This document shows, piece by piece, positions 20,541-63,328 of a stretch of DNA of 64,000 nucleotides (position 1 is the first letter of the stretch; each line of letters begins with the position of its first letter). Source of the stretch: an uncultured delta proteobacterium. GTDB taxonomy: Bacteria; Desulfobacterota; WTBG01; JAGOGO01. A model generated the notes under the pieces. It had not been told where the DNA came from. It was given only the letters and a program-made list of their open reading frames with translations, and made no database searches. The position numbers and the translations under genes were made by a program. Location of the stretch: contig CAVTQE010000023.1 of the NCBI GenBank assembly GCA_963736755.1, positions 9,822-73,821 of the forward strand. Direction: 5' to 3'.

Positions 20541-20597
20541 AAAGTTTTAAGGGTTAAGGAATCAAACGAACAACTTAAAACTTAACACTTAAATCTT
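20541..20597. repeat. Word-hairpin block (T words)
   Basis: aaagttttaagggttaagg (20541-20559) versus cttaaaacttaacacttaaatctt (20574-20597). Confidence 0.7.
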
Positions 20598-20609
20598 AGA
20601 TCTTAATTC

Positions 20610-22473
20610 TTATTCCTCCGCAACGTTCTGTAATTTTTCCTCAAATATCGTTTCTTGTCTCTTAAGTAGGTCGGTAAGTTTTTCGAGCTCATCAAAAAGG
20701 GCATCAACGGTTTTTTCGCACTGGTGCGTTGCCTGGGCGAGTTCGGTGATTGCTGAACCGTGGTGTTTACTTAACGCCTCCTGCATTGCGTTGGCAAGGC
20801 GATTCAGCTCCTGCTCCTGGATTTCTATTTCCTGCTCAATCTTTTCGATGCGTTGTTTAACGGGATTCAAAACTTTAGCTCGTTCGGCAATAATAACCGA
20901 GCGTTTTCGCCGCATCTCTTTTTTATTCCGCTTATCGCCCGATTCTTCATTGTGTTTATCTTTGAGCGCAGTTTTTCTCCTTTCTTCATCTTCGTGCCAC
21001 CCCCCCTGTTCTAAGAACCGCTGATAGCTTCCTTCAAAAAAATACGGGCCTTCTTTATCAAATACAATCAATCGTTCCGCCAGGGCGTGGAGAAACATCT
21101 CATTGTGGGTAACCAATAACACGGCACCCTCAAAACTATCTATGGCCTCAAGCAAAGCATCAGATGATTCCATATCGAGGTGGTTGGTAGGCTCATCAAG
21201 AAGCAGAAGATTAACGGGAGTAACGAGGAGTTTACCCAGCATTACCCTGCTTTTCTCACCGCCGGAGAGCACCTCTATTTTCTTAAGAGCAGCATCCCCC
21301 CCAAACATCATCGCACCACAGATATTGCGGGCCATCTGCCGATCAACGCTCACATGCGAAGCAAGTATTTCCTCCTCTATTGTTCGGGACTCCACCAGGT
21401 TTTTGACATTGGTTTGTTCAAAGGCAGCCACATGCCGCTCCCGGGTGTTGAGCAATCTCACCGCCTTGCAGGGCGAGCGTTCCCGCCAGAAGCTTTAAAA
21501 GGGTAGTCTTTCCTTTTCCATTGCTCCCAATAACGCAGACCCGGTCTCCGGCCTTAATCGTAAAACTCAAATTTCTGATAAGAGGTTTCGTGGCGTCATA
21601 AGCAAAAAAAAGGTTCTGGGCGCCCAACACATACTTCCCCTGAAATGGTTTGCTCCGAAAGGCAAACTCAAGATTTTTAAGTTGCTCAAGTTTTTCTTTT
21701 TTTCCCATTTTTCCAATGGTCTTAATGCGGGATTGAACAAGATTGGCGAGTCGCGCTTTTGCCCGGAAGCGGGTGATAAAAAGTTCGATTTCCCTCCGAC
21801 GCTGTTCATCTTTAATCCGCGTTTTTTCGTGTATTTCTTCTTCTTGAGCTATCTGACTGTAATATTTTTCGGTATCCCCTTCGGTTTTTCTGATTTTGTG
21901 GCGATAAAGCCCCATGGTGTGGGTCACCAGCTTATCCATCAGGCTCCGGTCGTGGGTAATGAGCAAAAGCTCATGGGGCCAGTCAAGTAAAAAACGTTCC
22001 ACCCAGCGGATGGAGGTTATGTCAAGATAATTGGTAGGCTCATCAAGCAGGAGCAGGTCAGGATCTGATACAAGTACTTTAGCCAGATTCAGTCGGACCT
22101 GAAACCCCCCGGAAAATTCCCAGGGTGGTCTTTTCATGTCCTCCAGTGAAAAACCCAGCCCCATAAGAATTTTTTCTACTTTCCAGTAGTGGTCCCGCTC
22201 CCCTTCGGGAAGCCCCTTCATGCCCTCCTGGAGTATGGCATCTTCCGTAAACTCCAAGGTTTGCCGGACATAACCAATGCGGTATCCCCGGGGGATGATG
22301 ACGCTACCCTCATCAGGCGGCTCTTCACCCACAATGATCCGAAAAAGGGTGGTTTTTCCATGGCCGTTACGGCCCACTAATCCCACCCGTTCGCGGGGGT
22401 TAATCTTGAAGTTCACCTGGTCAAAAAGAAGTTGATTACCAAATCGCTTGGTAAGGTTTTCTACGCTGATCAT
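20610..22473 (-). CDS. ABC-F family ATPase (two ABC domains plus C-terminal coiled coil), one frame break near 21440
   Basis: GRNGHGKTT and GSNGKGKTT Walker A motifs, LSGGF/LSGGEKSR signatures, LLLDEPTN twice. ORFs 21418-22473 and 20610-21461 are colinear. Confidence 0.9.
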
Positions 22474-22488
22474 AGTTCATCGTGCCAA

Positions 22489-22572
22489 TAAACCCGGTTA
22501 GAAAATTTTCACCAGGGGCATTTACCCCCTATTTCTTCACCCCGTTAGATATTTGTATCTAACGGGGCTCGT
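22489..22572 (-). repeat. CCCCGTTAG-family repeat element, short copy C
   Basis: Near-perfect palindrome cttcaccccgttagatatttgtatctaacgggg at 22535-22567; same orientation as copy B. Confidence 0.7.
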
Positions 22573-23030
22573 TCGTTAAAAAGCATATTCTTTTTCTCAC
22601 AATTAAGGGAGCGATTTCAAGAAAATATACAGGAGAGACCCCGTTTCTGGAAAAAATTGATTGTGTGCACTGTGCAAGCCGATTTTAAAAACTCTTTGCA
22701 TAACCAGGAATCACCGTTCCACCTCGAACCAGATGAATGCTTAAGTATCAGCCGTACCAACAGGCGCGAAACCAAAATTTTATGTGATTTATTCGTTGGG
22801 GCATTGACAACCCTTTCGAAAATGATAAGATCATGCCTGTCCGGGCAGTTTAAGAGTATTCCCATAATGCACTCAAATTCGAGAAGTTTTTGTCGGGGTT
22901 AGATAATGTTTGTTCTTCCAGACATATTCTCTGCTCTCGCGTTTATTACCAACCCGCGAAGGCGGTCTCATTTTTCTGCCATCTTATACCAAGTTGCATT
23001 CAAAAGCAGATCGAGGCGACGACGATCAAA

Positions 23031-23097
23031 ACGTGAAAAGTGCGACGTGAAGTGTGAAGTGTTTTAACACCTTACGTTTAACCTTTTACGATTTACG
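23031..23097. repeat. Word-hairpin block (H words)
   Basis: acgtgaaaagtgcgacgtgaagtgtgaagtg / tttt / aacaccttacgtttaaccttttacgatttacg. Confidence 0.7.
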
Positions 23098-23166
23098 AAA
23101 ACTGACGAGGAGACAACAAAGATATGCAAATGAAGGCGACTTGGTATTAGCAAAGGAGGATCACCC

Positions 23167-25818: not shown

Positions 25819-25910
25819 GAAGATTTAAGAATTTAAGGGTTAAGCTTAAAACTTAACAGCTTAGCATCTTAATACTTTTACCTTTTACGTCTCACTCTTC
25901 ACGTTTAACC
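25819..25910. repeat. Word-hairpin block (T then H words)
   Basis: agatttaagaatttaagggttaagcttaaaacttaacagcttagc...ccttttacgtctcactcttcacgtttaacc. Confidence 0.65.
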
Positions 25911-30771: not shown

Positions 30772-30900
30772 ACGTTGAGTCTCTCTTCGGGATGATTCAA
30801 TAAAAAAGGAAGGAAAATTTTCAGAAAGTGTAGGTGAGGATGGAAAAAATGTCAAGGTTTGTTCTGTTTCATTGAACTTCTGACAATATTTTGTTAGCAT

Positions 30901-31085
30901 AAGATTTAAGTTTTAAGATTAAAGTGTTAAGGGTTAAGCTCCTGGTTCGTAGTTCATGGTTCGTCGCTATCAGCTAGGAGCTATCAGCCAAGAGCTATGA
31001 GCAATGATCTAACAACTTAAAACTTAACCCTTTTAACTTATTTACTTTTCACATTTCACGTTACTTCACGTTTCACGGAGTATTT
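30901..31085. repeat. Word-hairpin block (T, S, T-complement, H words) between divergent purL and purN-like genes
   Basis: aagatttaagttttaagattaaagtgttaagggttaag / ggttcgtagttcatggttcgt / gctatcagctaggagctatcagccaagagctatgagc / acttaaaacttaaccc / ttcacatttcacgttacttcacgtttcacg. Confidence 0.7.
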
Positions 31086-31870: not shown

Positions 31871-31965
31871 GTATTTAAGGGTTAAGTTTTAAGTCTTTAA
31901 GCTTACCTTAAGCTTAACCTTAACTTAACCTTAACCCTTAAACCTTTAAACTTAAACTTTCAACT
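31871..31965. repeat. Word-hairpin block (T words), about 30-bp imperfect stem between purN-like and purM
   Basis: 31875-31902 ttaagggttaagttttaagtctttaagc pairs with 31908-31941 ttaagcttaaccttaacttaaccttaacccttaa. Confidence 0.8.
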
Positions 31966-31968
31966 TTA

Positions 31969-33924: not shown

Positions 33925-33936
33925 CTGATGTTGCAT

Positions 33937-51856: not shown

Positions 51857-54070
51857 GTGCATAGGCAGGATGTCATGGCTGAGAATTTTTTTGGAGAAGA
51901 AATCAATTTAAGAGATTACCTGAGAGTTCTTTTTAAAAGACGGTGGTTGATCGCCGCCGTTCTGCTCATCGTGGTCGTAAGCGTAACCATAGAGACATTC
52001 CGGAAGACTCCGATCTATCGGGCAACCGCTCAGGTTATGATTGAAAGCGAAAATCCCAAGGTGGTTGATATTCAAGAAGTTCTTCAAAGCAACCAGGAGT
52101 ATTCCGACTATTATCAAAGCCAATACGAGATTTTAAAAAGCAAAGCTCTGGCCTTGAAGGTAATCAACTATTTAAACTTAAATGAAAATCCTGTGGTTGG
52201 CGGTTCTAAAAAGGGCTTCAGTCCGGGCGCGGTTTTCCATGGAATGATAGGATGGCTTAAAAACCTTACCTCTTCGGCTGAGGCAAAACCCGATCCCCAG
52301 CTGGAGGAAGACCAACGAAATAACTCCCTGATAGCGGCTTACCTGGGCAGCTTGAGGGTGGAGCCGATAAAAAACAGCCGCCTGGTCAATATAAGTGTCG
52401 AAGGTATAGACCCCAAAATGGTAGCCAGGATCGCCAATACCCATGCTCAGCTTTACATCGAGAGCAACATCGAAAGAAAATTTGCTGCCGCTCAGGCAGC
52501 CGTGAGCTGGCTTAACCAGAGAATAAAAGAAGAAGGAAAGAAACTTCAGCAAAGCGAAGAATCTCTGCAGACCTACCGGGAACAAGAAGGTTTGATTGAT
52601 ATTGATTTTCAAGAACGACAGGGCATCATCATGCAGAGCCTTAATGACTTAAATACCGCGTTAACCGAAGCCCAGACTGAAAAAATAACAAAGCAGCAGC
52701 TCTCCTCAGCCTCGGGTCTGGATGAATCACATCCCGCGGTCATGCAGAACTCTTTAATCCAGGCACTCAAGGCAAACTATATCGCCCTTTCCGGAGAGTA
52801 CTCCAAGCTTTCCCAGAAATACGGCCCGGAACATCCCAACATGGTGAGACTCTCATCGGAAATGCAGGCGATACAAGGAAAAATTGCCCAGGAAATCAGG
52901 AAACTCGCCCAAAGCATGCACACCGATTCCCAATTAGCGTCAGACAAAGAAAAAGCCATTCTTGCCGCCATGGAAGCAAAGAAAAAAGAAGCCCTTGCCC
53001 TCAATCAGAAACAGATTAAATACGATGCATTAAAACGTGAAGTCAGCATCACCCGCTCCTTGTTTGAATCTTTGCTCAAGCGGGCCAAGGAAGCTTCGGT
53101 TACCGAAGGGTTAAACGTAACCAATATTGTTGTCGTTGATCCTGCCCGCTTGCCCGATACGCCTTTTAAACCCCAAAAAGCTCGCGATATTCTTTTCGCT
53201 CTGATCATCGGCCTTACCCTTGGCATCGGATTAGCCTTTTTGCTTGAATACCTGGATAACACCATCAAAATTCCGGAAGAGGTGGAACGCTATCTAAAAA
53301 TACCGCTCTTAGGTCTCGTGGGAAGTTTTCCAACTAACTCGACTGACCTCAAAAAGAATGAACTTATTTCTCATACGAACCCAAAGTCGACTATCTCGGA
53401 GGCCTATCGAACTATCCGGACAAACCTCCTTTTTTCTTCTCCGGATAATAAAAAACAAGTGCTTCTGGTAACCTCGATGCTCCCTTTCGAAGGCAAGACT
53501 GTCCTGTGCTCAAATCTTGCCATCACCTTTGCCAAAATGGGGAAAAAGGTACTTTTAGTGGATGCGGATATGAGGAAACCAAAAATTTATAAAGTGTTTA
53601 ATCTTGATCGAGTCAAAGGATTATCCGCGTTCCTCGTGGGCGAGGAATCTTCGATCGTAATTACGGACATTCCCGGCCTCAAAATTTTAACCTCCGGCAC
53701 CCTCCCGCCCAATCCCTCTGAACTTTTAAGTTCAAAAAAAATGCAAGATTTCATTGAGCGGGCCAGGGAACAATACGACCTCATTCTCTTTGACTCTCCG
53801 CCCATCCTTTCGGTCACTGACGCAGTCATTCTATCCACTCTTGCCGATGGGGTGGTAGTGACAATCAAGGCTTCCGATACCCCGCGACCAGCCATTAAGC
53901 AGGGACTCCAGCAGCTTTCCGAGGTGGGCGGCAAAGTGCTGGGTTGCGTTTTAAATGCTGTGGATTTTGAAAAGGAAAGCTACTACCATTCCCCCTACCG
54001 GTATCATCATCATTATTATTATCACGCGTATGGAGAAGAGGAAAAAAAAGATTTAAGATTTAAGGGTTAA
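51857..54070 (+). CDS. Polysaccharide co-polymerase / tyrosine autokinase (Wzc/GumC-type)
   Basis: N-terminal Wzz domain, coiled coil, second TM, Walker A SMLPFEGKT, DADMRKP, C-terminal Tyr/His cluster YYHSPYRYHHHYYYHAY. Confidence 0.9.
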   Translation: MHRQDVMAENFFGEEINLRDYLRVLFKRRWLIAAVLLIVVVSVTIETFRKTPIYRATAQVMIESENPKVVDIQEVLQSNQEYSDYYQSQYEILKSKALALKVINYLNLNENPVVGGSKKGFSPGAVFHGMIGWLKNLTSSAEAKPDPQLEEDQRNNSLIAAYLGSLRVEPIKNSRLVNISVEGIDPKMVARIANTHAQLYIESNIERKFAAAQAAVSWLNQRIKEEGKKLQQSEESLQTYREQEGLIDIDFQERQGIIMQSLNDLNTALTEAQTEKITKQQLSSASGLDESHPAVMQNSLIQALKANYIALSGEYSKLSQKYGPEHPNMVRLSSEMQAIQGKIAQEIRKLAQSMHTDSQLASDKEKAILAAMEAKKKEALALNQKQIKYDALKREVSITRSLFESLLKRAKEASVTEGLNVTNIVVVDPARLPDTPFKPQKARDILFALIIGLTLGIGLAFLLEYLDNTIKIPEEVERYLKIPLLGLVGSFPTNSTDLKKNELISHTNPKSTISEAYRTIRTNLLFSSPDNKKQVLLVTSMLPFEGKTVLCSNLAITFAKMGKKVLLVDADMRKPKIYKVFNLDRVKGLSAFLVGEESSIVITDIPGLKILTSGTLPPNPSELLSSKKMQDFIERAREQYDLILFDSPPILSVTDAVILSTLADGVVVTIKASDTPRPAIKQGLQQLSEVGGKVLGCVLNAVDFEKESYYHSPYRYHHHYYYHAYGEEEKKDLRFKG

Positions 54071-54261
54071 GTTTTAAGGGTCTAAGGAACTTAAAGCTTC
54101 AGAACTTCGATACTTATGGCTGCCTTGCAACATATTGAGAATTATTAGCTTTTAACGGTTTACGGTCTTTTGATCTTAACCCTTTGACTCCTTTATCCTT
54201 TACGGTTCGACTTTGATCCTTAACCTTATCCTTAAACCTTAACCCTTAACTCTTTATTATC
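54071..54261. repeat. Word-hairpin block (T words and complements)
   Basis: gttttaagggtctaaggaacttaaagc...gatcttaaccctttgactcc...gatccttaaccttatccttaaaccttaacccttaac. Confidence 0.7.
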
Positions 54262-55229
54262 ATGATTGACCTTCACGCGCATATCCTTCCTGACCTTGAT
54301 GATGGGGCAAAAGACTGGCAGGAGACCCTTGATATGTGCGCCATTGCCTTGAATGACGGCATCCACACCATCGTGGCCACCCCCCATGTGAAACGAGGAA
54401 TGTACACCCCGGCCAAAAAACTTATCTTATCCAAGGTCGCCGAACTCAACCACCGCCTGCTCCATGCTCCGCTTACGCCTCCCGTCGTGTAAAACGTGAA
54501 ACGTAGAGATGTAACTCCTCACGCTTCACGCCCCGCGCCTCCCCGTCAAACGTAAAAAGTAAAACGTTAGAAGTAACTCCTCACGTTTCACAGTTCACGT
54601 TTCACGGATTAACAATTGTGCCCGGCGCTGACAACGCTTTTGAGCCGGATATCCTCGACCAATTAGAACAGGGAACTGCTTTGTATCTTGCCCACCCCAC
54701 CAACGCTATAAACGCACCAAACGCAATTAACGCGAATAACCCAACTACCCGTGAAATGCGAAGCATATTTCACCGGGACCCCACAAACCCTATAAACCCA
54801 ACCCTCCGCTACGTGCTCCTGGAGTTGTCCGATTATTTTCTTTTTCCTCAGGTGAAAGACCTCATCCGGAAACTCCGCGAAAAAAACATCGTGCCTGTCC
54901 TCAGCCACCCGGAAAGAATTGCCATGATCCAGAAAAATCACCAGCTCCTTCAGGCCTTCATTCAAGCCGGCGCTCTTTCCCAGGTAACCGCGATGAGCAT
55001 CACCGGTGAATTCGGAAAAGAAATTAAAAAACTTACCCGAACCCTGGTAAAGAAAAATCTGGCGCATGTTATCGCCTCTGATTCCCACTCAAAAGACCGC
55101 AGGCCGCCGATACTTTCACAAGCAGTCTCGGAGGTCGCTGACCTTATCGGCAGCGATAAAGCGGAACTGATGGTCCAGGGGATACCCCAGGCGATCATTG
55201 AAGGTAAGGAAATAAGATTAGATGATTAG
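54262..55229 (+). CDS. PHP-family protein-tyrosine phosphatase (CpsB/YwqE type), split by a 137-nt word-hairpin insertion and carrying a second in-frame insertion
   Basis: MIDLHAHILPDLDDG...TPH... (54262-54468), then GLTIVPGADN...SHPER...ASDSHS (54606-55229) in another frame. Confidence 0.8.
54469..54605 (+). repeat. Word-hairpin insertion inside the phosphatase CDS (two tandem units)
   Basis: Stops in all three frames (taa 54490, tga 54497, tag 54504). Contains the core gtcaaacgtaaaaagtaaaacgttagaagtaactcctcacg. Confidence 0.8.
54691..54808 (+). repeat. In-frame low-complexity insertion in the phosphatase CDS
   Basis: ccaccaacgctataaacgcaccaaacgcaattaacgcgaataaccc ... hairpin gtgaaat/atttcac ... 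ccacaaaccctataaacccaaccctcc. Confidence 0.65.
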
Positions 55230-55297
55230 AGGATTGGAAGGTTGGAAGGTTAGGGAATTAGATAATTAGATGGTTAGAAGATTGGATGGTTAGAGGG
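55217..55297. repeat. Word block (G words) overlapping the phosphatase stop
   Basis: gattagatgattagaggattggaaggttggaaggttagggaattagataattagatggttagaagattggatggttagaggg. Confidence 0.7.
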
Positions 55298-55299
55298 AA

Positions 55300-55665
55300 A
55301 TGGGGAAAAATTTTTATAGAGACCTGTTAGTCTGGCAAAAGAGTGTATCCTTGATAAAAGAGGTTTACGCTGAAGCTGACAAATTGCCAAAATCAGAGGA
55401 ATATAATCTGAAGCAGCAACTTAAAAGAGCAGTTGTTTCTGTTTCGTTAAATATTGCTGAAGGGAAAAATCGAAGATCCCCAAAAGATTTTATTAATTTC
55501 CTTAATATCTCAAATGGTTCTTTAGCGGAGACAGAAGCGATTTTATTGATATGCGGGGAACTTGGGTTTTTGCGTATTCCGGAAGATTTACTTTCCCATA
55601 TAGAAGAACTGGCAAAAATGATCAACAGCCTGATTGCCAACATAAGGGGGAAATTAGAAGGTTAG
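55300..55665 (+). CDS. Four-helix-bundle protein, 23S rRNA IVS protein / Avd-like family (copy 2)
   Basis: ...QLKRAVVSVSLNIAEGKNRRSPKDFINFLNISNGSLAETEA... Confidence 0.85.
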   Translation: MGKNFYRDLLVWQKSVSLIKEVYAEADKLPKSEEYNLKQQLKRAVVSVSLNIAEGKNRRSPKDFINFLNISNGSLAETEAILLICGELGFLRIPEDLLSHIEELAKMINSLIANIRGKLEG

Positions 55666-55904
55666 AGGATTAGAGGATTGGAGGGTTAGAAGATTGGAAA
55701 GTTGGATGATTAGAGGGTTAGGAGGAGACTAACTTGCAAACATCCCAACATCTAAACTTCTAATCTTCTATCGCGTCCAAACATCCAAACCTCTAAACCT
55801 CCAACCCTCTGAAGTTGCTAATCCGTCTAAAACTCTAAACATCGGGTCTTTGCCCTTAACCTTAACACTAAAACTTAACACTTAATTACTTAAATCTTAA
55901 CCCA
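55651..55904. repeat. Word-hairpin block: G words, then complementary words, then T words
   Basis: 55651-55728 ttagaaggttagaggattagaggattggagggttagaag... versus 55742-55830 acatcccaacatctaaacttctaatcttc...cctctaaacctccaaccctc; then cttaaccttaacactaaaacttaac. Confidence 0.7.
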
Positions 55905-58119
55905 ATGAACACGATTATTGAGTATGGCCTTATTTTCCTGATTATTTTTACCCCGCTCGCCTTTGGCTCAGTCCATGTCTGGGCATATACCATCGTGGAA
56001 GTTGTTGTCCTTCTTCTTCTTTTGATTTGGCTGTTAAAACATTTTACTTTTCACGATTCACGTTTCACGTCTTCACTTTTCACGTTTCACTTTTCACGCA
56101 TTCACCCGTACTTTCACATTTCACTCTTTACGTTTTACGATCCCCTTTTCCCTCTTCCTGGGCCTGATCCTTTTCCAGATGGTTCCAATACCTGCGACAG
56201 TAATAAAACACCTGTCCCCCAATACCTATGATCTCTACCAGCAAACCATCGGAAATCCGTTAAACGTAAAAAGTAAAACGTTAAATGTTACTACGTCCCT
56301 CGCTGATAGCTCATTGCCGATAGCAAAACCCATGAGCCACGAGCTATCACATTTCACGTCCTATGATCCATTTACACAAACGCCACCAAAACCGAATTTC
56401 TCAAATTCTTTGCCTACTTCTCCGTATTTTTTCTCATCATCACGACCATGACCACCACGCGTCAGATACGACGAATAGTACTGACGATTATTTTCACCGG
56501 AACCGGCGTTGCATTTTTAGCGCTCTGCCAGATACTCAGCAAGTCAGATAAAATCTACGGGTTCTGGCAGTCTCAGCAGGCTCTGCACAAGATCGGAATC
56601 TACGGCGGTCAGATCGGAAAGATCGGAAGCTACGGCGGTCCTTTTATCAATCCCAATCACCTGGCCGGCTACCTGGAGATGGTTATCCCTCTCGCGCTCG
56701 GGTTTTTGCTCAGCCGCGAGGTACCGGGCATCATTCGTTCGGCAAAAAACTGGAAACGACGGCTTTCCCTGCTTGAATCCTGGCTTGCGAAAAATACCCT
56801 CCTTATCTTCATTATCGTCCTGATGGCATCAGCGGTCTTTATTTCTGCCTCGCGGGGCGGGATTATTTCTTTTATTTTTTCTTTAGGGTTATTTTCCCTG
56901 CTGCTCGGAGTGCGAAGATACCACAAGGGAAAAAGAAAGATGGTGCTGCTTATCACCGGATTAATATTCATTTTTCTTCTGTGGATGGGCATTGGCCCGG
57001 TAGTCACCGAACTCGCTACCCTCGCCGATCCCAAGACCTCCGGCTTAGTGGTACGGCTCCAGGTATCGAAAGATACCCTTGCCCTGGCACGGGACTTTCC
57101 CCTCTTCGGGGTCGGGCTGGGTAATTTTCAAACTCTCTATCCTAAATATCAAACATTTATCTACCCCTTCTTCTGGGACCACGCTCATAATGATTACGTG
57201 GAAATGCTCGCCGATACCGGCTGGATGGGGCTGCTCTTATTTTTTGGTGGAATCTGGTTGGTGCTTTTCGCCATCATCAAAACGTGGAAGCAAAGGCGAG
57301 ACCCATTTCTGGCGGACATAACCCTCGGTGGTTTTATCGGCGCAGTGTCTCTTCTGTGCCATTGCCTGGTAGATTTTAACCTCCACATTCCTGCCAATGC
57401 CTTTCTCCTTTTTGTGATCCTGGGACTGATGGTCGCTGCGGTTAATATCAAAAAAAAGGGAGAAGAAGATTTTTCTTTCCTTCCAATCCGCGCCGTTTCT
57501 TTCTCGCCCAAAACAAGAACTGCGCTGATCATGGCAAAAGCCCTCATAATAGTGTTCCTGCTTACCCTGGTGATGAAAGATTATCTGGCGTATCATTTTT
57601 TTAGTAACTACCAATCCCTCAAGCCGAGCGAGTTCTCACTCGCCGCCTCCCTCGTTAAACGTAAAAAGTAAAACGTTAGAAGTAACTCCTCACAGTTCAC
57701 GTTTCACGTTTCACGTTTTACTCACCCGGGCCATCTTTTTTGATTCGGGTAATGCACCGTATCATTATGAGCTGGGTAATTATTATGCCCGCAAGATGAG
57801 CGAATCCTGGAAACGGGGAACCTCGAACATACCAGGAGAACAATGGGTCTTTGACGCTGAAAAAAATGCCCGATTTTTTGGACTTAAGGCTTTACAGGCG
57901 TATGCTGATGCGGTAAACTTGTCTCCGGCCAATGCCTGGTATCATTTTTATCTAGGATGGACCCTGAGCGAATTAAAGCGGTTTTCGGATTTCTCCCAAC
58001 ATCCGATCCCGCTTGCGGAACCTTTTGACGCGGAAACAGAATTTTCCCGGGCCCTCATGCTCGATCCAAACAATGAAAATATTAAAAAATATATAACGGC
58101 CGTAAAACCTGGAGGTTAA
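55905..58119 (+). CDS. O-antigen-ligase-like (Wzy_C) membrane protein with C-terminal TPR-like tail, interrupted three times by word-hairpin insertions
   Basis: ORFs 55905-56231, 56179-56451, 56448-57671 and 57796-58119 are colinear. Core ...FWDHAHNDYVEMLADTGWMG... Confidence 0.75.
56038..56140 (+). repeat. H-word insertion 1 inside the ligase CDS
   Basis: attttacttttcacgattcacgtttcacgtcttcacttttcacgtttcacttttcacgc...; no stop in frames 0 and 1. Host frame changes from 0 to 1. Confidence 0.75.
56254..56366 (+). repeat. Word insertion 2 inside the ligase CDS (core element plus S-complement words)
   Basis: gttaaacgtaaaaagtaaaacgttaaatgttac...gctgatagctcattgccgatagc...catgagccacgagctatcac. Host frame changes from 1 to 0. 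Confidence 0.75.
57654..57725 (+). repeat. Word-hairpin insertion 3 inside the ligase CDS
   Basis: gttaaacgtaaaaagtaaaacgttagaagtaactcctcacagttcacgtttcacgtttcacg; about 90% identical to 54545-54607. Confidence 0.8.
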
Positions 58120-58127
58120 AGAAAAAA

Positions 58128-58240
58128 GTTTTAAGGGTTAAGATTTAAGGGTTAAAGAACTTAAAACTTAATTACTTAAATCTTGTGTTTTTCACTTTTT
58201 ACGTTTCACGGTTAACCGTTTACGGCGTTTCACTTGGAAA
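58128..58240. repeat. Word-hairpin block (T then H words)
   Basis: gttttaagggttaagatttaagggttaaagaacttaaaacttaattacttaaatctt...ttcactttttacgtttcacgg. Confidence 0.7.
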
Positions 58241-58246
58241 GGCTTT

Positions 58247-59380
58247 TTGATGTGGAAATTTTTTCTAACCTTTTTTATTACTTACGGCACGATGCACTCC
58301 TTGTTTTACCACCGCGTGCGCGTGCTTCTGCCTGACCAGCGCTGGATTCACGGCCTGGTCATAGTCCTCCTGGTGCTGCTGGTTATCGTTCCGGTGAGCA
58401 GTATTTTCCTGGACAGGAGCGGTCATGCCGAATCAGCGCGACTGGCGGCGCTCATCGGCTTCAGCTGGATGGGGTTTCTTTTCTTCGCGTCGATTCTGGC
58501 TGTCGGCATGGATATTTTGGATATCCTTTCCTGGACAGGAAGGAGAATCTTCGCCCGGGATCTTCCCACACTGTGGGGAAAAGGGCCAGCGATAATAATG
58601 CTGGCATCAGCGCTTCTTATCTGTGTTTACGGAGTTTTCGACGCACGTCGTATCCGCGTGGAGCGAATAACCGTCGCGACGGACAAACTGCCGGCGGGGG
58701 CGCAGCGCCTGCGAATTGCCCAGATCTCCGACGTGCATATAGGCCTGCTCATCGGAAAGCCCCTTCTCAGCACTATTATCGGGATTCTCAACCGGGAGCA
58801 GCCTCAGATCGTGGTCTGCACCGGTGACCTGCTCGACAGCTCCGGTCATATCGATGGGCTTTCACCCCTCCTTAAGCAAATACAGCCCCGATACGGCAAA
58901 TATGCCGTTATCGGTAACCACGAGTGCTACCTTGGCCTTGCCCGTTCGCTGGCGTTTCTCGACCAAGCCGGGTTCAGGGTGGTTCGCAACCAGGTAATGA
59001 CCAATGGGGGAATCATCAACATTGCCGGGGTCGATGACCCCGCGGCGGGAATCAAAACGGACGAGGTCGCCCTGCTCTCCTCCATACCGAACAAACTCTT
59101 CACCCTGTTTCTCAAACATCAGCCAAACGTGCCAACAGAAACGCACGGGCTTTTTGATCTCCAACTGTCCGGTCACACCCATAAGGGCCAGCTGTTTCCT
59201 TTCGGCTATGTGGTTTCCCTTTCTTATCACTACCTGGCGGGATTCTATCCTTTAAGCAAAGGATCATCGCTTTACACCAGCCGCGGCACCGGCACCTGGG
59301 GCCCTTCCATGAGAGTGCTGTCACCGCCGGAAGTCACCATCATCGATGTGGAGAGCAGCCGAGCTGTTCGTAAAAAGTAA
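58247..59380 (+). CDS. Membrane-anchored metallophosphoesterase (calcineurin-like)
   Basis: N-terminal TM helices; ISDVHIG, CTGDLLD, GNHE, GVDD, SGHTHKGQ motifs. Confidence 0.85.
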   Translation: MMWKFFLTFFITYGTMHSLFYHRVRVLLPDQRWIHGLVIVLLVLLVIVPVSSIFLDRSGHAESARLAALIGFSWMGFLFFASILAVGMDILDILSWTGRRIFARDLPTLWGKGPAIIMLASALLICVYGVFDARRIRVERITVATDKLPAGAQRLRIAQISDVHIGLLIGKPLLSTIIGILNREQPQIVVCTGDLLDSSGHIDGLSPLLKQIQPRYGKYAVIGNHECYLGLARSLAFLDQAGFRVVRNQVMTNGGIINIAGVDDPAAGIKTDEVALLSSIPNKLFTLFLKHQPNVPTETHGLFDLQLSGHTHKGQLFPFGYVVSLSYHYLAGFYPLSKGSSLYTSRGTGTWGPSMRVLSPPEVTIIDVESSRAVRKK

Positions 59381-59504
59381 AGCACGAGGCGAAAGGAGTA
59401 AAGAGTTAGGTGTTAAATACCGTAAATCGTAAAGGGTAAACAGTAAAAGGTTAAAGGTTAAAAGTAAACAGTAAAAACTAAAGACTGATACCAAAAAGTG
59501 AAAG
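59381..59504. repeat. Word block (cgtaaa/gtaaac words) 5' of four-helix copy 3
   Basis: ccgtaaatcgtaaagggtaaacagtaaaaggttaaaggttaaaagtaaacagtaaaaac...aaaaagtgaaag. Its complement words follow the gene at 59862-59935. Confidence 0.7.
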
Positions 59505-59861
59505 ATGGATTCAAGACAACATAGAAAATTAGACGTCTGGAAAAGGTCAATGGAGTATGTAAGAGAAATTTATAAGCTTACTGAGTCTTTCCCAAAATCA
59601 GAGGCCTATGGCCTGACTTCCCAGATGAGGAGATCATCTATATCTATCCCGAGCAATCTGGCAGAGGGAGCTGCACGCAAAGGTACAAAGGAATTCAGTC
59701 AATTTTTAAATATCGCTCAGGGGTCTATCAGTGAGCTTGACACTCAAATAGAGCTGGCTTTTATGCTGAATTATATTGATAAGCAAAGTTATGAAGATCT
59801 GATGGAAAAGTTAAAAGCAATATCTAAAATGTTGTTCGGCTTGTCAAGGTCACTAAAATGA
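59505..59861 (+). CDS. Four-helix-bundle protein, 23S rRNA IVS protein / Avd-like family (copy 3)
   Basis: ...QMRRSSISIPSNLAEGAARKGTKEFSQFLNIAQGSISELDTQ... Confidence 0.85.
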   Translation: MDSRQHRKLDVWKRSMEYVREIYKLTESFPKSEAYGLTSQMRRSSISIPSNLAEGAARKGTKEFSQFLNIAQGSISELDTQIELAFMLNYIDKQSYEDLMEKLKAISKMLFGLSRSLK

Positions 59862-59935
59862 CAACTGATAAAAGTTAATTTTCACTTTTCACTTTTCACT
59901 TTTTACGCTTAACGACAAAATAAAGGAAAAAGATT
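59862..59935. repeat. Word block (H words) 3' of four-helix copy 3
   Basis: gttaattttcacttttcacttttcactttttacgcttaacg...gattcgaggcacgaag. Confidence 0.7.
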
Positions 59936-60000
59936 CGAGGCACGAAGATCGGGGATAAATTTACCGAAAACAATAAAATTTAAAACGGGAAGATGATCAC

Positions 60001-60546
60001 ATGGATATAGTCAAGCTTGAAAAAGTCGAAAACAAAATCATTGAAATAAGAGGTCAAAAGGTTTTGCTGGATGCTGATGTTGCAGAAATTTACGGTGTTG
60101 AGACGCGAGATATCAATAAAGCCGTGACAAATAATCCGGATAAATTTCCTGAGGAATATGTTGTTGAACTCTCAAAATCTGAAAAAAGAGAACTGGTGGA
60201 AAATTTCCACCGGTTCAATAAGCTAAAGCATTCTACGGTAAATCCTAAAGCATTTCCTGAAAAGGGCTTGTATATGCTTGCTACCATACTCAAAAGCGAA
60301 AAAGCAACTTCGACAACTATCGCTATCATTGAGACTTTTGCCAAGATAAAAAACCTGTCAAACAATATCAAGGAGCTGTCAAAAAGCCGGCATGATAAAC
60401 AAAGGCAAAATCTTCTTCAGAAAAGCGGAGACATTATTTCCGATATACTCTATGACGATTTAGTCACAAATGAAAGTGAGACAAGCTTCGAGATAAACTT
60501 TGCGGTGTTGAAATTCAAGCACACCATCAAAAAAAGTAAAAAATGA
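60001..60546 (+). CDS. ORF6N-domain (KilA-N-related) DNA-binding protein
   Basis: KIIEIRGQKVLLDADVAEIYGVETRDINKAVTNNPDKFPEEYVVELS... Confidence 0.8.
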   Translation: MDIVKLEKVENKIIEIRGQKVLLDADVAEIYGVETRDINKAVTNNPDKFPEEYVVELSKSEKRELVENFHRFNKLKHSTVNPKAFPEKGLYMLATILKSEKATSTTIAIIETFAKIKNLSNNIKELSKSRHDKQRQNLLQKSGDIISDILYDDLVTNESETSFEINFAVLKFKHTIKKSKK

Positions 60547-60612
60547 ATATCCGAGGAACGAGAATTAAGGGTTAAGGGGCAAGGTTAAAGGCGTGAGGAA
60601 GAGGGAAAAAGA
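60547..60612. repeat. Word block 5' of four-helix copy 4
   Basis: cgaggaacgagaattaagggttaaggggcaaggttaaaggcgtgagg. An approximate complement lies at 61112-61150. Confidence 0.6.
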
Positions 60613-61023
60613 ATGAAACTTACTCGTTTTGAAGACCTCGACTGCTGGCAGGAAGCCAGAAAATTAGTGAAAAGTGTCTATGGAGTAACGAGGGGCGACT
60701 CATTCAAAAAAGACCTTCGGCTCTGCGGACAGATTCAGGCAGCAAGTTCTTCGGTGATGGCAAATATAAGTGAGGGGTTTGTAAGAAGGTCGAACAAAGA
60801 ATTTACTCAATTCTTGTTTATTGCCATGTCATCTTCTGCTGAAGTTCAGAGCCACCTTTATAGCGCCTTAGACCAGGGGTACATCAATCAAGCGCAGTTT
60901 GATGACATTTACAACCAAGCCACGAAAACAGCGAAGATTATATCTGGGCTCATTACTTATTTGAGAAATAACGAGAAACAATATAAACTCAACAAACCAG
61001 AAAAACAGAAGAAACCAAATTAA
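60613..61023 (+). CDS. Four-helix-bundle protein, 23S rRNA IVS protein / Avd-like family (copy 4)
   Basis: ...QIQAASSSVMANISEGFVRRSNKEFTQFLFIAMSSSAEVQS... Confidence 0.85.
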   Translation: MKLTRFEDLDCWQEARKLVKSVYGVTRGDSFKKDLRLCGQIQAASSSVMANISEGFVRRSNKEFTQFLFIAMSSSAEVQSHLYSALDQGYINQAQFDDIYNQATKTAKIISGLITYLRNNEKQYKLNKPEKQKKPN

Positions 61024-61111
61024 CCAAAGAGACTAAAGAAACCAGAGAAACCAGATAAACCAGATAAACCAGATAAACCAGAGAAACCAAATAAACCAGA
61101 GAAACCAAACA
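61022..61111 (+). repeat. 9-nt tandem repeat (aaccagaga/aaccagata), about 10 units, starting at the stop codon of copy 4
   Basis: Eight clean units at 61040-61111 plus two degenerate units. In frame with the ORF they would read KPEKPDKPDKPDKPEKPNKPEKPNK. Confidence 0.85.
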
Positions 61112-61233
61112 AACGTTTCACGTTTTACTTTAACCCTTTATCCTTTTAATTATTCACTCATTCACTTATTTACTTATTTACTTATTAACTTATTAACTCA
61201 TTAACTCATTTACTTTTTAATGTAGTTAAATCT
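61112..61233. repeat. Word block (H, T-complement, L words)
   Basis: acgtttcacgttttactttaaccctttatcc...ttcactcattcacttatttacttatttacttattaacttattaactcattaactcatttac. Confidence 0.7.
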
Positions 61234-61734: not shown

Positions 61735-61841
61735 CGGCGCCATGCGCCGGATATCGTGAATCGTAAGGCGTGAAAAGTGAGGAGCAACATTTAACGTTTT
61801 ACATTTTACGTTTTACGTTTTACGTCTAACGGAGTTTAGGG
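61735..61841. repeat. Word-hairpin block containing an inverted copy of the core element
   Basis: cgtgaatcgtaaggcgtgaaaagtgaggagcaacatttaacgttttacattttacgttttacgttttacg. Confidence 0.7.
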
Positions 61842-62201
61842 ATGTTAAACAAACCTCATAAAAAACTGGATGTATGGAAAAAGGCAATCGATTTGGTGCA
61901 GCAGATATATGATCTGACAAAAACTTTCCCGAAAAATGAAGATTACAGCCTAACCAGCCAAATGAGAAGAGCTGCGATATCAGTACCCTCTAACATAGCG
62001 GAAGGAGCAGCGCGGCAAACCAAAAAAGAATTCATGCAATTTCTTCATATGGCACAAGGTTCGCTGAGCGAATTGGATACACAGATAGAAATAGCAAAAA
62101 GATTAGGATATTTCAGTGAGGATCAAACCAAAAAAATATTCGAGATTATGCAAGATGTTGATAGGATGTTAAGTGGTCTCATTAAGTCATTAAAGAAATA
62201 A
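61842..62201 (+). CDS. Four-helix-bundle protein, 23S rRNA IVS protein / Avd-like family (copy 5)
   Basis: ...QMRRAAISVPSNIAEGAARQTKKEFMQFLHMAQGSLSELDTQ... Confidence 0.85.
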   Translation: MLNKPHKKLDVWKKAIDLVQQIYDLTKTFPKNEDYSLTSQMRRAAISVPSNIAEGAARQTKKEFMQFLHMAQGSLSELDTQIEIAKRLGYFSEDQTKKIFEIMQDVDRMLSGLIKSLKK

Positions 62202-62300
62202 CTTTTCACTTTTCACTTTTCACGTTTTACGTTTTACGGTTTTTAACGCTTTTCACATTTTACTAATTTACTTTTCACTTTTTAACTTATTAACCCTTTT
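62202..62300. repeat. Word block (H and L words)
   Basis: cttttcacttttcacttttcacgttttacgttttacgg...cttttcacattttactaatttacttttcactttttaacttattaaccc. Confidence 0.7.
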
Positions 62301-62399
62301 TTTAACAAATTCATTTACAACTCCTGAAGGTTTTTTACAAACCTGACCGGGCGGAGCCTGCCCCGCGCCTTACAACAAAAGAAAGAAACAAGATTCGAG

Positions 62400-62482
62400 G
62401 CACAAGGAACGAGAATAATCGTAAAAAGTAAACAGTAAAAGGTAAACAGTAAAAACTAAAGACTGATACCAAAAAGTAAAAG
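62400..62482. repeat. Word block 5' of four-helix copy 6 (paralogous to 59441-59504)
   Basis: cgtaaaaagtaaacagtaaaaggtaaacagtaaaaactaaagactgataccaaaaagtaaaag. Confidence 0.75.
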
Positions 62483-62637
62483 ATGGATTCGAGACAACAT
62501 AGAAAATTAGACGTCTGGAAAAGGTCAATGGAGTACGTAAGAGAAATTTATGAGCTTACCGAGTCTTTCCCCAAATCAGAGGTCTATGGTTTGCGCTCGC
62601 AAATGCGTCGAACGGTTGTATCAATACCCAGCAATCT

Positions 62638-62924
62638 TCACCCTGTTAAATAGCTTGAAGTAAGAATGCATTATTATACATATGTCCTACAAAGCATGAA
62701 TGATATGAATTTCTATACAGGGTATACAAAAAACCTCAAACTAAGATTTGAGCACCACAATAAAGGCCTTGTTGAGTCGACAAAAGACAGAAGACCATTC
62801 AAATTGATTTATTATGAAGCATGTCTGAATCAGAATGATGCAATAAAACGAGAAAAGTATTTAAAAACATACCATGGTAAGATGTTTTTGTATAAAAGGC
62901 TCAAATCTTATTTAACCGGGTAAA
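62638..62924 (+). mobile_element. 287-nt insertion carrying a GIY-YIG nuclease ORF, bounded by 12-nt imperfect terminal inverted repeats
   Basis: ccctgttaaata (62641-62652) versus tatttaaccggg (62909-62920), 11/12 complementary. It replaces 4 nt (g gca) of the NLAEG motif. Confidence 0.75.
62666..62923 (+). CDS. Small GIY-YIG nuclease family protein
   Basis: YYTYVLQS...FYTGYTKNLKLRFEHHNKG...FKLIYYEAC...AIKREKYLK (GIY...YIG, conserved Arg and Glu); 85 aa. Confidence 0.9.
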   Translation: MHYYTYVLQSMNDMNFYTGYTKNLKLRFEHHNKGLVESTKDRRPFKLIYYEACLNQNDAIKREKYLKTYHGKMFLYKRLKSYLTG

Positions 62925-63189
62925 GAAGGTTCCGGCAGTACCTCAAAGAAAGAATTTATACAATTTCTTAATATCGCAAGGCGATCAACCTTCGAAAATG
63001 CAAATATGATTATCGTGTTTGAGAAACGGAGTCTAATAATGTGAGTTAAGAGACGAGCTATTGATTAGACCTTGAGCAGGAGTTCGGATGCACACTAATT
63101 TTATAAAAGCTGTTACGGGAAAACTAACCCCTTGCTCCGTGATCACTGACAGCTGGGAAAAGGGCTCATTCCAAGCTCCATGCTCCATG

Positions 63190-63328
63190 CCCCATGCTTT
63201 TTAACGTTTACGTTTCACGTTTTACATTTAACGTTTCACGTTTCACTTTTCACGTTTCACTTTTCACGGTCTTTTCACCTTTCACTTTTCACGGTCTTTT
63301 CACCTTTCACTTTTTTCGGAGCTAACCC
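63190..63328. repeat. Word block (H words, single polarity)
   Basis: aacgtttacgtttcacgttttacatttaacgtttcacgtttcacttttcacgtttcacttttcacggtcttttcacctttcacttttcacgg... Confidence 0.7.

Follow-up and report, generated by a model that had tools for sequence, protein, structure and literature searches.

A window of 64,000 nucleotides from an uncultured delta proteobacterium contains many short low-complexity blocks built from degenerate words, and the question that this locus raises is what these blocks are. The words were labelled T (ttaaggg/ttttaag, complement cttaaaa/cttaacc), H (cacgttt/cactttt, partners cgtgaaa/cgtaaaa), G (ggttaga/ggattgg, complement ctaaacc/ccaaccc), L (acttatt/gttaataag) and S (gctatcagc/gctatgagc and ggttcgt). 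The blocks, with periods of 7, 8 or 9, are real, being recovered by TRF, by a periodicity scan and by repeat-family analysis, and a census found 23 word clusters in the window, every one at or beyond 20.5 kb, whereas local shuffling of the sequence yielded 0.15 (maximum 1). Block sites are at about 20.54, 23.03, 25.82, 30.90-31.08, 31.86-31.97, 50.26-50.38, 51.8, 54.05-54.25, 54.49-54.61, 55.2-55.9, 56.04-56.14, 57.65-57.72, 58.12-58.23, 59.43-59.48, 59.88, 60.97-61.22, 61.75-61.83, 62.2-62.3, 62.42-62.46 and 63.17-63.31 kb. The first-pass annotation was right in recognising one real family with a common vocabulary, but its statement that nearly every intergenic gap holds a block is true only of 50-64 kb: from 20.2 kb onward a strong block is present in only 16 (plus three weak) of the 39 gaps of at least 40 nt, and blocks occupy about 16 of 20 gaps at 48-64 kb versus none of 13 at 32-48 kb. 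Its description of a shared grammar rather than a copied repeat is half right, since copied segments are also present, namely a 71-nt family at 54541 and 57650 (89% identity) and an exact, non-periodic signature of 22-24 nt, AAAACTTAATTACTTAAATCTT, common to the T blocks of the window and the T cassette of a relative. What it missed is how the blocks are organised, namely as arms on either side of cassettes that carry a four-helix-bundle gene, and as gene-less derivatives of such cassettes.

Genes of the four-helix-bundle family PF05635/TIGR02436 (23S rRNA IVS protein, Avd-like) lie in the polysaccharide locus at 50-63 kb: five are intact, one is interrupted and one is a remnant, all are on the + strand, and most are bracketed by arrays on both sides. 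The L-type cassette (51365-51856) has a 5' GTTAATAAG array, gene 51402-51812 (TIGR02436, E 7e-25) and a 3' CTTATTWAC array. In the G-type cassette (55216-55901) a G array (55216-55294) precedes gene 55300-55665 (TIGR02436, E 9e-33), and a second G array (55653-55726), a complementary G' array (55747-55809) and a T' array (55854-55901) make up the 3' part; the segment 55665-55812 folds as a hairpin of -58.2 kcal/mol (z -5.9), and the identical array type on both sides of the gene counts against a model of complementary arms. One H-type cassette (59429-59907) is composed of a 5' GTAAAAG/GTAAACA array, gene 59505-59861 (TIGR02436, E 4e-40) and a 3' TTTTCAC array, with an arm-to-arm duplex z of -2.1, and another (61748-62294) of a 5' hairpin (61748-61838, z -4.6), gene 61842-62201 (PF05635, 145 bits; PDB 2GSC, E 4e-33) and a 3' TTTTCAC/TTTTACG array (62201-62294). 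The arms are complementary in the L cassette, the G cassette and this last H cassette, the arm-to-arm duplexes having z of -3.6, -3.9 and -6.4 (the last with -47.8 kcal/mol). Also at odds with such a model, complementary arms are absent from the N-type cassette (60555-61220; duplex z +0.6), which consists of a purine-rich leader, gene 60613-61023 (TIGR02436, E 6e-28), a AAACCAGAG nonamer array (60973-61114, also found by TRF) and an L' octamer array (61145-61220). A GIY-YIG gene interrupts a further H-type cassette (62421-63314; hmmsearch, Pfam GIY-YIG, repeat family and TRF), in which a 5' array (62421-62460), the N-part of the gene (62483-62652), the GIY-YIG ORF (62666-62923), the C-part (62925-63044), a TCCATGC array (63170-63198) and an H' array (63200-63314) follow one another. 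The remnant, at 50201-50375, is the 3' end of an H-type gene (50201-50262, 86% identical to 62138-62242 in the repeat-family analysis) followed by an H' array (50264-50375).

The remaining blocks have no gene. Three of them had been given as examples of hairpins and do fold as described, with unequal strengths. The T/T' hairpin immediately 5' of purM (31862-31968; z -6.7 and -7.0) is strong, with -31.7 kcal/mol and z -6.7 over 31860-31975. The H hairpin at 23031-23097 (+ strand; 5'-(CGTGAAA)n-loop-(TTTTACG)n-3'; -19.1 kcal/mol, z -2.5 over 23025-23100) and the T/T' hairpin found by TRF at 20541-20612, downstream of the ABC-F ATPase gene (z -2.35 on the + strand, over 20528-20612, and -1.7 on the - strand), are weak. 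In L164 the 3' arm of the T cassette can be aligned with the T' arm of the 20541-20612 hairpin, and it also has an exact 22-nt match to the T/T' hairpin and H' array at 58126-58226 (TRF). Between convergent genes at 25823-25905 there is a weakly folding T/T' hairpin (z -1.8) and then an H' array, and a one-armed G' array of CTAACCC/TCTAATC words (low complexity, periodicity 0.75) lies at 19690-19730, just outside the range annotated earlier. The composite block at 30900-31077 is made of a T arm, an inner S hairpin (GGTTCGT and GCTATCAGC words), a T' arm and an H' array, and its segment 30896-31045 folds with -42.2 kcal/mol (z -4.1). In the wzc/cpsB gap (54048-54254) a 110-nt insert separates a T arm (54048-54100) from a T'/CCTTAAC array (54216-54254). 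Blocks are also found inside genes: two H hairpins at 54490-54610 (strong-pairing strand -; -21.4 kcal/mol, z -5.5, and -25.3 kcal/mol, z -5.9) lie in cpsB, where the CpsB profile match is broken between positions 66 and 103, and the O-antigen polymerase-like wzy contains an H' array (56042-56139), an H arm (56258-56290) and an S hairpin (56296-56350), with a - strand fold of z -3.6. The - strand H hairpin at 57652-57725 (-24.7 kcal/mol, z -3.9) is an 89% copy of 54541-54611.

About half of the blocks fold as hairpins, with z of -3.5 to -7, and the remainder are one-armed arrays. The idea that each block is a hairpin thus describes many of them, as imperfect hairpins, but not those with z near 0 on both strands (62199-62300, 50258-50385, 60990-61115, 59395-59500, 60555-60612 and 55820-55905); for several of these one-armed arrays the complement sits across a gene. 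The G-U asymmetry reported for the H words is real, full pairing being obtained only with G-U pairs on one strand. With 7 G-U pairs the + strand of 61748-61838 reaches -28.1 kcal/mol, versus -10.3 for the - strand; at 54490-54535, 54545-54610 and 57652-57725 the asymmetry is reversed and the - strand pairs better, and T and G blocks are symmetric. The asymmetry is compatible with the suggested role at the RNA level, but it is a weaker hint than it looks: only two or three element families contribute to it independently, and in the H-hairpin copies inside cpsB and wzy the strong-pairing strand is antisense to the host mRNA, which counts against the cassette reading as well.

Cassette anatomy and polarity recur across phyla. 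In a sample of 80 loci of homologues of the four-helix-bundle gene, from many phyla, the order of a purine-rich heptamer array, the gene and a complementary array is found again, with purine-rich upstream and pyrimidine-rich downstream flanks in 65 of 79 loci (p = 5e-9). Arrays of period 6-9 take up 13-20% of the bases at most 50 nt from the gene ends versus 0.3-0.7% beyond 500 nt, and in 38 of 77 loci the two flanks pair in a duplex with z < -3. Across the 80 loci the sense and antisense versions of this duplex showed no difference in stability (43/77), a result that counts against the cassette reading. Among Xanthomonadales the arrangement is accB-[GGGAATC-type array]-gene-[complementary array]-accC, with words as in the known Xanthomonas repeats, and in Nostoc edaphicum it is (GTAGGGA)x8-gene-(TCCCTAC)x5, so that the Xanthomonas GGGAATC repeats and the cyanobacterial heptamers fit the cassette pattern. 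Most plasmid-borne homologues are on cyanobacterial plasmids, and PF05635 genes have previously been found wedged in cas operons (PMC3936711). Of the intergenic bases, arrays make up 16.2% where the gap adjoins the gene and 4.8% where it lies elsewhere in these loci; in 73 contigs chosen without regard to the gene, a phylogenetically narrow baseline of relatives of one purM, their share is 0.31%. At the level of gaps the test of adjoining versus other gaps is modest (odds ratio 2.6, p = 0.011), and with arrays in 22 of 162 non-adjacent gaps (13.6%) arrays outnumber genes; the arrays could therefore have been present before the gene, which then landed in them.

Among close relatives the arrays at fixed sites turn over rapidly, copy number included. 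Strains about 95% identical have different modules, different cassette types or none at the same sites. The site upstream of purM is hypervariable, with T, L or S+H+T modules or none, and the site after the rfaH-like gene has a T-type cassette in relatives and an H-type one in the window. L081 has a whole T-type cassette, interrupted by GIY-YIG, at the site of the 50201-50375 remnant. In the wzc/cpsB gap three relatives have a T/T' hairpin and a CCTTTAA/CCTTTAT array of about 6, 8 and 20 units. One relative reads through a different module mix at the site inside cpsB, and the blocks inside wzy are translated in frame in relatives, with insertions or deletions of whole modules (30 nt) and not of single units. 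Most arrays in relatives have no adjoining four-helix-bundle gene. The gene-less hairpins descend from cassettes, retaining cassette-specific sequence that includes the gene 3' end: in L085 an L hairpin without a gene can be aligned with the L cassette of the window at its two ends, and the aligned part takes in the final ~25 nt of the cassette gene.

We consider it fairly probable (about 0.6) that the blocks represent the repeat arms at the ends of small, IVS-like selfish gene cassettes, and the decayed, gene-less leftovers of these. In a full cassette a purine-rich array of degenerate words of 7-9 nt would precede, and an array of complementary words would follow, a gene of about 120 codons; its four-helix-bundle product (PF05635/TIGR02436) is a relative of the Avd protein of diversity-generating retroelements. 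In 53 of 73 cross-phylum loci the genes on either side both run in the direction of the four-helix-bundle gene, and in five they are opposed to it; median gaps are 72 and 48 nt. This sense orientation in short gaps between co-directional genes indicates that the cassettes are probably transcribed with the host operon. Once transcribed, the arms of a cassette, or the halves of a block without a gene, may pair into a stem of 20-45 bp, which RNase III (gene 15737-16552 in the window) would probably cut, by analogy with the 23S rRNA intervening sequences of Coxiella and Leptospira and with the heptamer hairpin of Haemophilus hmw. Cleavage would free the host transcript of cassette RNA, so that insertion in operons, and sometimes inside genes, would become tolerable. 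The arrays change fast through slippage and recombination. The cassettes would also have to move, and it counts against this reading that no target-site duplication, transposase or integrase linked to them was seen.

Heptamer arrays might instead be plain simple-sequence repeats that polymerase slippage creates and alters from any seed that happens to be present, the four-helix-bundle genes being unrelated passengers or preferential inserters into repeats. The copy numbers that differ among close strains, the arrays in gaps away from the gene, the many gene-less arrays of relatives and the heptamer excess reported without a gene link (PMC4692102) all agree with this. Slippage alone, however, leaves unexplained why the arrays are inverted, why purines and pyrimidines are polarised with respect to the gene, why arrays are enriched about 50-fold close to it, why gene-less blocks keep gene 3' ends and non-periodic signatures, and why one word family takes the place of another at a given site; we regard it as an unlikely account.

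Equally doubtful is that the arrays are host regulatory elements, that is, binding sites or RNA structures tuning translation, transcription or phase variation of their neighbours, with the frame-shifting 7-nt units inside wzy and cpsB as on/off switches. The unit is indeed not a multiple of three, blocks are densest in a surface-polysaccharide locus, arrays frequently lie against start codons as the TAACTGA repeats do (PMC4679880), regulatory heptamer effects have been reported in Nostoc (bioRxiv 10.1101/2022.06.06.494920), and the hmw switch of H. influenzae works in this way (PMC12721329). Yet block presence and type vary upstream of the housekeeping gene purM among near-identical strains, identical modules are found at unrelated genes, the in-gene blocks of relatives are in frame and differ by 30-nt modules rather than single units, and a conserved partner regulator is not evident.

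Dispersal, hairpin formation and the existence of some copies that are 89% identical recall miniature transposable elements of the MITE or REPIN kind, in which the arrays would be terminal inverted repeats and a transposase or RAYT from another place in the genome would act in trans. REP/BIME, REPIN and ERIC are likewise dispersed intergenic hairpin-forming repeats in operons, but their palindromic consensus is defined, and REPINs also have a RAYT transposase (PMC3116915). The blocks are tandem word arrays without fixed consensus or RAYT; their arms are of low complexity and variable length without defined termini, filled-versus-empty site comparisons showed no target-site duplications, the only transposase seen is an IS1595 fragment (47815-48063) unlinked to blocks, and the associated gene encodes a four-helix bundle without nuclease fold, which makes such elements very improbable. 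Insertion of hairpins inside genes is shared with the palindromic elements that Ogata et al. are said to have described from Rickettsia in 2000, reportedly selfish hairpin repeats that lie in frame inside protein-coding genes and are translated. Those elements reportedly have a conserved sequence of ~100-150 nt, no word arrays and no associated gene, whereas the blocks are word arrays with one. An assembly or sequencing artefact of low-complexity DNA is effectively refuted, as the same architecture, often at the same sites, is present in independent ENA/JGI metagenome assemblies, isolate genomes and finished plasmids, although the many split genes of the window (wza, purL, der, ABC-F) suggest indel errors, so that some in-gene stops may be assembly errors.

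The first-pass annotation recognised no named class; they are not REP/BIME, ERIC or CRISPR, but they do belong with two described systems, the bacterial heptameric tandem repeats and the S23p-encoding intervening sequences of 23S rRNA. The latter, in Leptospira and Coxiella burnetii, resemble the cassettes in a homologous ORF (S23p/PF05635) in sense with the host transcript, in terminal inverted repeats that form a long stem around it and in a sporadic, selfish-looking distribution (PMC4990558). The Coxiella element has a 28-bp terminal stem that is cut by RNase III, a step that for the cassettes would hold by analogy, and GACAGAT heptamers in strain-variable number upstream of the ORF (PMC4990558). 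The cassettes differ in lying outside rRNA (no 23S motifs were found near them in the window or in any of the 80 loci), in arms that are long degenerate word arrays, in many types per genome and in many gene-less derivatives, some inside protein-coding genes. Their protein shares fold and family relationship with Avd (PF22296, 43.7 bits; PHROG 'Avd protein of DGR', E 9e-17), but the window proteins fall under the Avd equivalog cut-off (37-43 versus 80 bits), and beside the four-helix-bundle genes neither a reverse transcriptase nor a template/variable repeat pair was seen. In the 5'-UTR of H. influenzae hmw a transcribed (ATCTTTC)n array supplies one side of a long hairpin that RNase III cuts, and changes in repeat number need hairpin, transcription and RNase III (PMC12721329); unlike the blocks, this element is not dispersed but confined to one regulatory locus, that of a host adhesin gene, and it has no four-helix-bundle gene. 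The heptameric repeats (cyanobacterial STRR-type, Xanthomonas GGGAATC, Nostoc GGGGAYT, Beggiatoaceae TAACTGA) are intergenic tandem 7-mers, sometimes in inverted pairs, variable among relatives and often at start codons (PMC4692102; PMC4679880). Those studies describe one word per organism and do not draw the link with four-helix-bundle genes, whereas here several word families are each tied to a cassette type, and this cassette arrangement may help to explain why 7-base tandem repeats are common in bacteria.

The intergenic blocks of short degenerate words are real. Dozens of arrays with periods of 7, 8 or 9, all of them beyond 20.5 kb, were detected by Tandem Repeats Finder, and a self-match scan that is independent of this program placed arrays at the same positions. 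The word families of the first-pass annotation (T, H, G, L and S) formed 23 clusters when at least four words per cluster were required, compared with 0.15 (maximum 1) after local shuffling of the sequence. Their units are joined head to tail, mostly with a period of 7 and otherwise of 8 or 9, and the gap census found them to be mostly intergenic, as is expected of heptameric SSRs, a known phenomenon with which the cassettes described here overlap. The same annotation had placed a block in nearly every gap, which was overstated: from 20.2 kb onward 16 of the 39 gaps contain a strong block and 3 a weak one, and the description suits only the region 48-64 kb (approximately 16 of 20 gaps), whereas 32-48 kb has none.

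Each block had also been described as a long hairpin. The three examples offered do fold in the way that was claimed, one of them strongly (31860-31975, -31.7 kcal/mol, z -6.7 relative to shuffled sequence) and the other two weakly (z approximately -2.4), but hairpins account for only about half of the blocks, and six long arrays fold no better than shuffled sequence on either strand (z near 0). The one-armed blocks are mostly arms of cassettes, in which heptamer arrays enclose a gene encoding a four-helix-bundle protein. As for the proposal of a shared grammar rather than one repeat copied around, the vocabulary is common to the blocks, but copied segments exist too, namely a 71-nt family (89% identity) and exact signatures of 22-24 nt that occur in relatives as well. 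The asymmetry produced by G-U pairs in H-type hairpins was confirmed at 61748-61838, with -28.1 kcal/mol on the forward strand (seven G-U pairs) versus -10.3 kcal/mol on the reverse strand, while three other H hairpins presented the reversed preference. The favoured strand of every such hairpin is 5'-(CGTGAAA)n-loop-(TTTTACG)n-3', and because it reads identically in every case the H hairpins are one element type present in two orientations.

Several features of the window lie apart from the blocks. The last 48 nt of the tRNA-Pro(GGG) gene (33936-34013) are repeated exactly 7.2 kb downstream (41165-41212), and these repeats bracket an island encoding a zinc-ribbon protein, an epimerase, a radical-SAM/SPASM enzyme and a glycosyltransferase, in which no heptamer blocks and, among the ORFs scanned, no integrase were found. 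Both copies (35327-35395 and 40902-40970) of a 69-nt repeat ending in CTATACGCCTGAGCGGAGTCCCTCYCRGGTC (81% identity) are within this island. The segment 42000-46000 has a G+C content of 0.54-0.60 versus approximately 0.45 elsewhere and a 188-nt tandem duplication (42008-42368, 81% identity); as it is devoid of heptamer blocks it is probably foreign DNA. Two segments of approximately 150 nt (10262-10408 and 12484-12629), 88-93% identical, in direct orientation and 2.2 kb apart, are unrelated to the word blocks. The sole transposase signal seen was an IS1595-family fragment (47815-48063), with no block adjacent to it.

The region 48-64 kb is a polysaccharide locus of co-directional genes, which encode a beta-barrel porin, Wza, Wzc, CpsB, a Wzy-like polymerase, an RfaH/UpxY-like antiterminator and a UDP-sugar enzyme. 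Wedged among these are five intact four-helix-bundle genes, at 51402, 55300, 59505, 60613 and 61842. All five match TIGR02436 (E 7e-25 to 4e-41), and the two that were compared with PF05635, '23S rRNA intervening sequence protein', both match it (145 and 114 bits). Among solved structures the closest is that of XCC0516 from Xanthomonas campestris (PDB 2GSC, E 4e-33). Comparison of the proteins with defence-system libraries gave no PADLOC match. A sixth gene (62483-63044) is split by a GIY-YIG ORF, and a 3' remnant of a four-helix-bundle gene is found at 50201-50262. Arrays flank most of these genes on either side, and the array upstream of the gene has its complement in one downstream in the L cassette (z -3.6), the G cassette (z -3.9) and the H cassette at 61842 (z -6.4). 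Arm pairing was weak in the H cassette at 59505, and the arm-to-arm duplex test revealed no complementary arms in the N cassette.

A 53-nt segment containing GATTCGAGGCAC (79% identity) follows the 3' arrays of the H-type cassettes 59505 and 61842, its copies being at 59906-59958 and 62366-62418, and directly after the second copy the next cassette (62421) has its 5' array. This segment may mark the boundary of a cassette or act as a promoter; when it was used as a conserved leader motif, a search allowing 3 mismatches returned only the self-match. Between two cassettes is an ORF6N-domain anti-repressor-like gene (60001-60546), which matches PDC-S05, a candidate defence family of PADLOC (E 1.5e-81), and the segment that carries it (58120-61233) is absent from relatives between wzy and the rfaH-like gene.

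The GIY-YIG nuclease ORF, of 85 codons, was identified in three different four-helix-bundle genes, at 62640-62925 in the window and at 2170-2440 and 8010-8290 in L081, a contig of a related strain, each time at the same codons (SN|IAEG motif). The 5' junction cttgccctgttaaaYagcttgagg is common to both L081 copies, with a similar, diverged version in the window, and the uninterrupted allele is present in a relative (L163, 3445-3819). This ORF looks like a homing-endonuclease gene that targets the four-helix-bundle gene family. The insert is too short to accommodate a group I intron core.

Among strains (metagenome contigs) that are 94-97% identical in coding DNA, the block sites are completely different. 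Downstream of the rfaH-like gene there is a T-type cassette in relatives versus an H-type cassette in the window, and the cpsB/wzy gap has three different contents among strains. In the wzc/cpsB gap of three strains the same T hairpin is followed by approximately 6, 8 or 20 CCTTTAA/CCTTTAT units. T hairpin lengths also differ between the contigs L082 and L084, so that unit number varies among close relatives, as in STRRs. The site directly 5' of purM has, in relatives, T/T' hairpins of other lengths (primes denote complementary words), L/L' hairpins, a mixture of S, H and T words, or nothing; no four-helix-bundle genes and practically no arrays turned up in purM relatives that are distant (55-65% identity). 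In one relative (L162, 3440-3840) the cpsB/wzy gap is without a four-helix-bundle gene, and in its place there are approximately 400 nt of different non-coding DNA, in which ctctattctccctctccc occurs twice along with a GC-rich hairpin; this stretch may be a small element of another kind.

Cassettes are the source of the gene-less hairpins. In the related contig L085, the L hairpin aligns to the 5' arm of the L cassette of the window and, from its loop onward, to the last 25 nt or so of the L gene and the 3' arm. Moreover, AAAACTTAATTACTTAAATCTT is common to T blocks and to the 3' arm of a T cassette. Blocks are also located inside cpsB and wzy, where relatives read through in frame and differ by whole modules. 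In the window, wza (50393/50916), the genes for an ABC-F ATPase (20610/21418) and a GlcNAc 2-epimerase (24531/25403), purL (27770/28806), der (16549/17153) and a molybdopterin oxidoreductase gene (1809-3881) are each split into two overlapping ORFs; wza, cpsB and wzy are intact in relatives. These observations suggest that the split genes are assembly indel errors, or pseudogenes, and stops within in-gene blocks should therefore be regarded with caution.

The association is not confined to this organism. Using one genome per species and a single protein as query (the alignment of five paralogues being too divergent), we collected 80 homologous loci, of 45-60% identity, from Bacteroidota, Acidobacteriota, Pseudomonadota, Planctomycetota, Chloroflexota, Bacillota and others; the protein family comprises 25,907 clusters at 50% identity (E up to 1e-3). 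Up to 50 nt from the gene ends, 13-20% of bases fall in arrays with periods of 6-9, versus 0.3-0.7% beyond 500 nt. When only intergenic DNA of the same loci is counted, arrays cover 16.2% of the bases in gaps adjoining the gene versus 4.8% of those in other gaps (gap-level odds ratio 2.6, p = 0.011), and they make up 0.31% of intergenic bases in 73 contigs not selected for the gene. The flanks are purine-rich upstream and pyrimidine-rich downstream in 65 of 79 loci (p = 5e-9). In 53 of 73 loci the two neighbouring genes run in the direction of the four-helix-bundle gene, and in 5 they run against it; median gaps are 72 and 48 nt. Flanks of 120 nt pair better than shuffles (z < -3) in 38 of 77 loci; this pairing had no strand bias (43 of 77, from the 80 loci), and hence G-U pairs give no general reason to invoke RNA.

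Six Xanthomonadales have the gene between accB and accC, where it is bracketed by GGGAATCGGGAGTGGAGAATCGGGAATCGG and CCCATTCCCCATTCTCGACTCCCTATTCCC, arrays which belong to the GGGAATC repeat family of Xanthomonas, described without a tie to the four-helix-bundle gene (PMC4692102). When arm co-evolution was assessed in these six cassettes, the own partner was the best in three, two of the loci having poor coordinates. At four Xanthomonadales loci (L035, L048, L032 and L033) the downstream array abuts the accC start codon, with no Shine-Dalgarno sequence left. Among 72,556 plasmids scanned, the homologues came almost entirely from cyanobacteria (of 29 records, 13 are from Nostoc and 4 from Calothrix), one Nostoc example consisting of (GTAGGGA/GTGGGGA)x8, the gene and (TCCCTAC)x5. 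Both genera are among the taxa known for heptamer repeats. The evidence ties the heptamer repeats to four-helix-bundle genes, as arms of cassettes found in operons of many phyla.

Most described element classes do not accommodate the blocks. REP/BIME/REPIN elements have a palindromic consensus of approximately 35 nt and a RAYT, while the word arrays have no fixed consensus and no RAYT-like ORF was seen among the ORFs scanned. The blocks are not ERIC elements either. CRISPR was rejected since the units are contiguous, of 7-9 nt and without spacers, and MITEs since filled-versus-empty and allele comparisons revealed whole-gap replacement with no target-site duplications. The blocks lack the G+C-rich stem and U tract of intrinsic terminators; the numbers of terminator-like and promoter-like sites in 48-64 kb were not above those of shuffles. 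A DGR was rejected because the ORFs scanned around the genes contain no reverse transcriptase domain and Avd equivalog scores were below the cut-off. At the gathering threshold Rfam recognized only the tRNA-Pro in the window, so the blocks correspond to no known RNA family. With regard to integron cassettes, which have an attC site and a nearby IntI integrase, cassette-like units of ORF plus hairpin and same-site exchange were seen; no integrase was found among the ORFs scanned, which are part of those of the window.

With S23p-type intervening sequences (IVS) the cassettes share the ORF, the enclosing stem and the heptamers. In 23S rRNA IVS, terminal inverted repeats enclose a homologous ORF and RNase III cuts the stem, so that the transcript loses the element; the ORF is preceded in Coxiella by GACAGAT heptamers, three or four depending on the strain (PMC4990558). 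Apart from this remark, we found no paper in the literature searched tying stand-alone PF05635 genes to flanking heptamer arrays. However, IVS are located in 23S/16S rRNA helices, whereas the window has no rRNA (Rfam) and the cassettes are flanked by protein-coding genes. None of the 80 loci is in rRNA, and no conserved 23S motifs were detected in the window or in these loci. As the defining location fails, the elements are IVS-like cassettes and not IVS.

By analogy, we infer that the cassettes are IVS-like selfish insertions in operons. The arms would pair within the read-through transcript (predicted stems of 20-45 bp), RNase III would process the paired arms, and slippage and recombination would drive the evolution of the arrays. 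The gene for the enzyme required by such a mechanism (rnc) is present at 15737-16552, followed by der. The hmw case of Haemophilus is similar in that a heptamer array, once transcribed, folds into a hairpin of the 5'-UTR and is cut by RNase III, and changes in repeat number require hairpin, transcription and RNase III, all three (PMC12721329). The comparisons establish anatomy, polarity, turnover and descent, and cleavage may be proposed from these precedents. Against IVS-like insertions, the N and G cassettes are without simple complementary arms, arrays outnumber genes, the H hairpins within genes have their best pairing on the antisense strand and flank pairing shows no general strand bias.

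A broader possibility is that four-helix-bundle (S23p/Avd-like) proteins and heptamer arrays constitute one widespread unrecognised system, the protein being a trans-acting factor that would bind, build or move cognate 7-nt arrays, perhaps with transcription and RNase III as in the hmw case. We propose this tentatively, giving it roughly one chance in four. If true, it would account for the long-noted excess of heptamers in bacteria (cyanobacterial STRR, Xanthomonas GGGAATC and others) and would give a function to a family of more than 25,000 clusters (50% identity).

The cassettes have practical consequences as well. The blocks mark hypervariable sites, which makes them useful for strain typing, and they are a likely cause of mis-assembly and false gene calls. 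Eighteen PF05635 genes within cas operons were previously read as possibly CRISPR-associated (PMC3936711); 'four helix bundle protein' genes in cas or polysaccharide operons are probably insertions and not members of the pathway. Two long-standing puzzles, the excess of 7-base tandem repeats and the role of the common '23S rRNA intervening-sequence' four-helix-bundle proteins, are here joined, with gene-less remains of cassettes scattered through intergenic DNA and even coding sequences, and both can now be tested in tractable organisms such as Xanthomonas and Nostoc.
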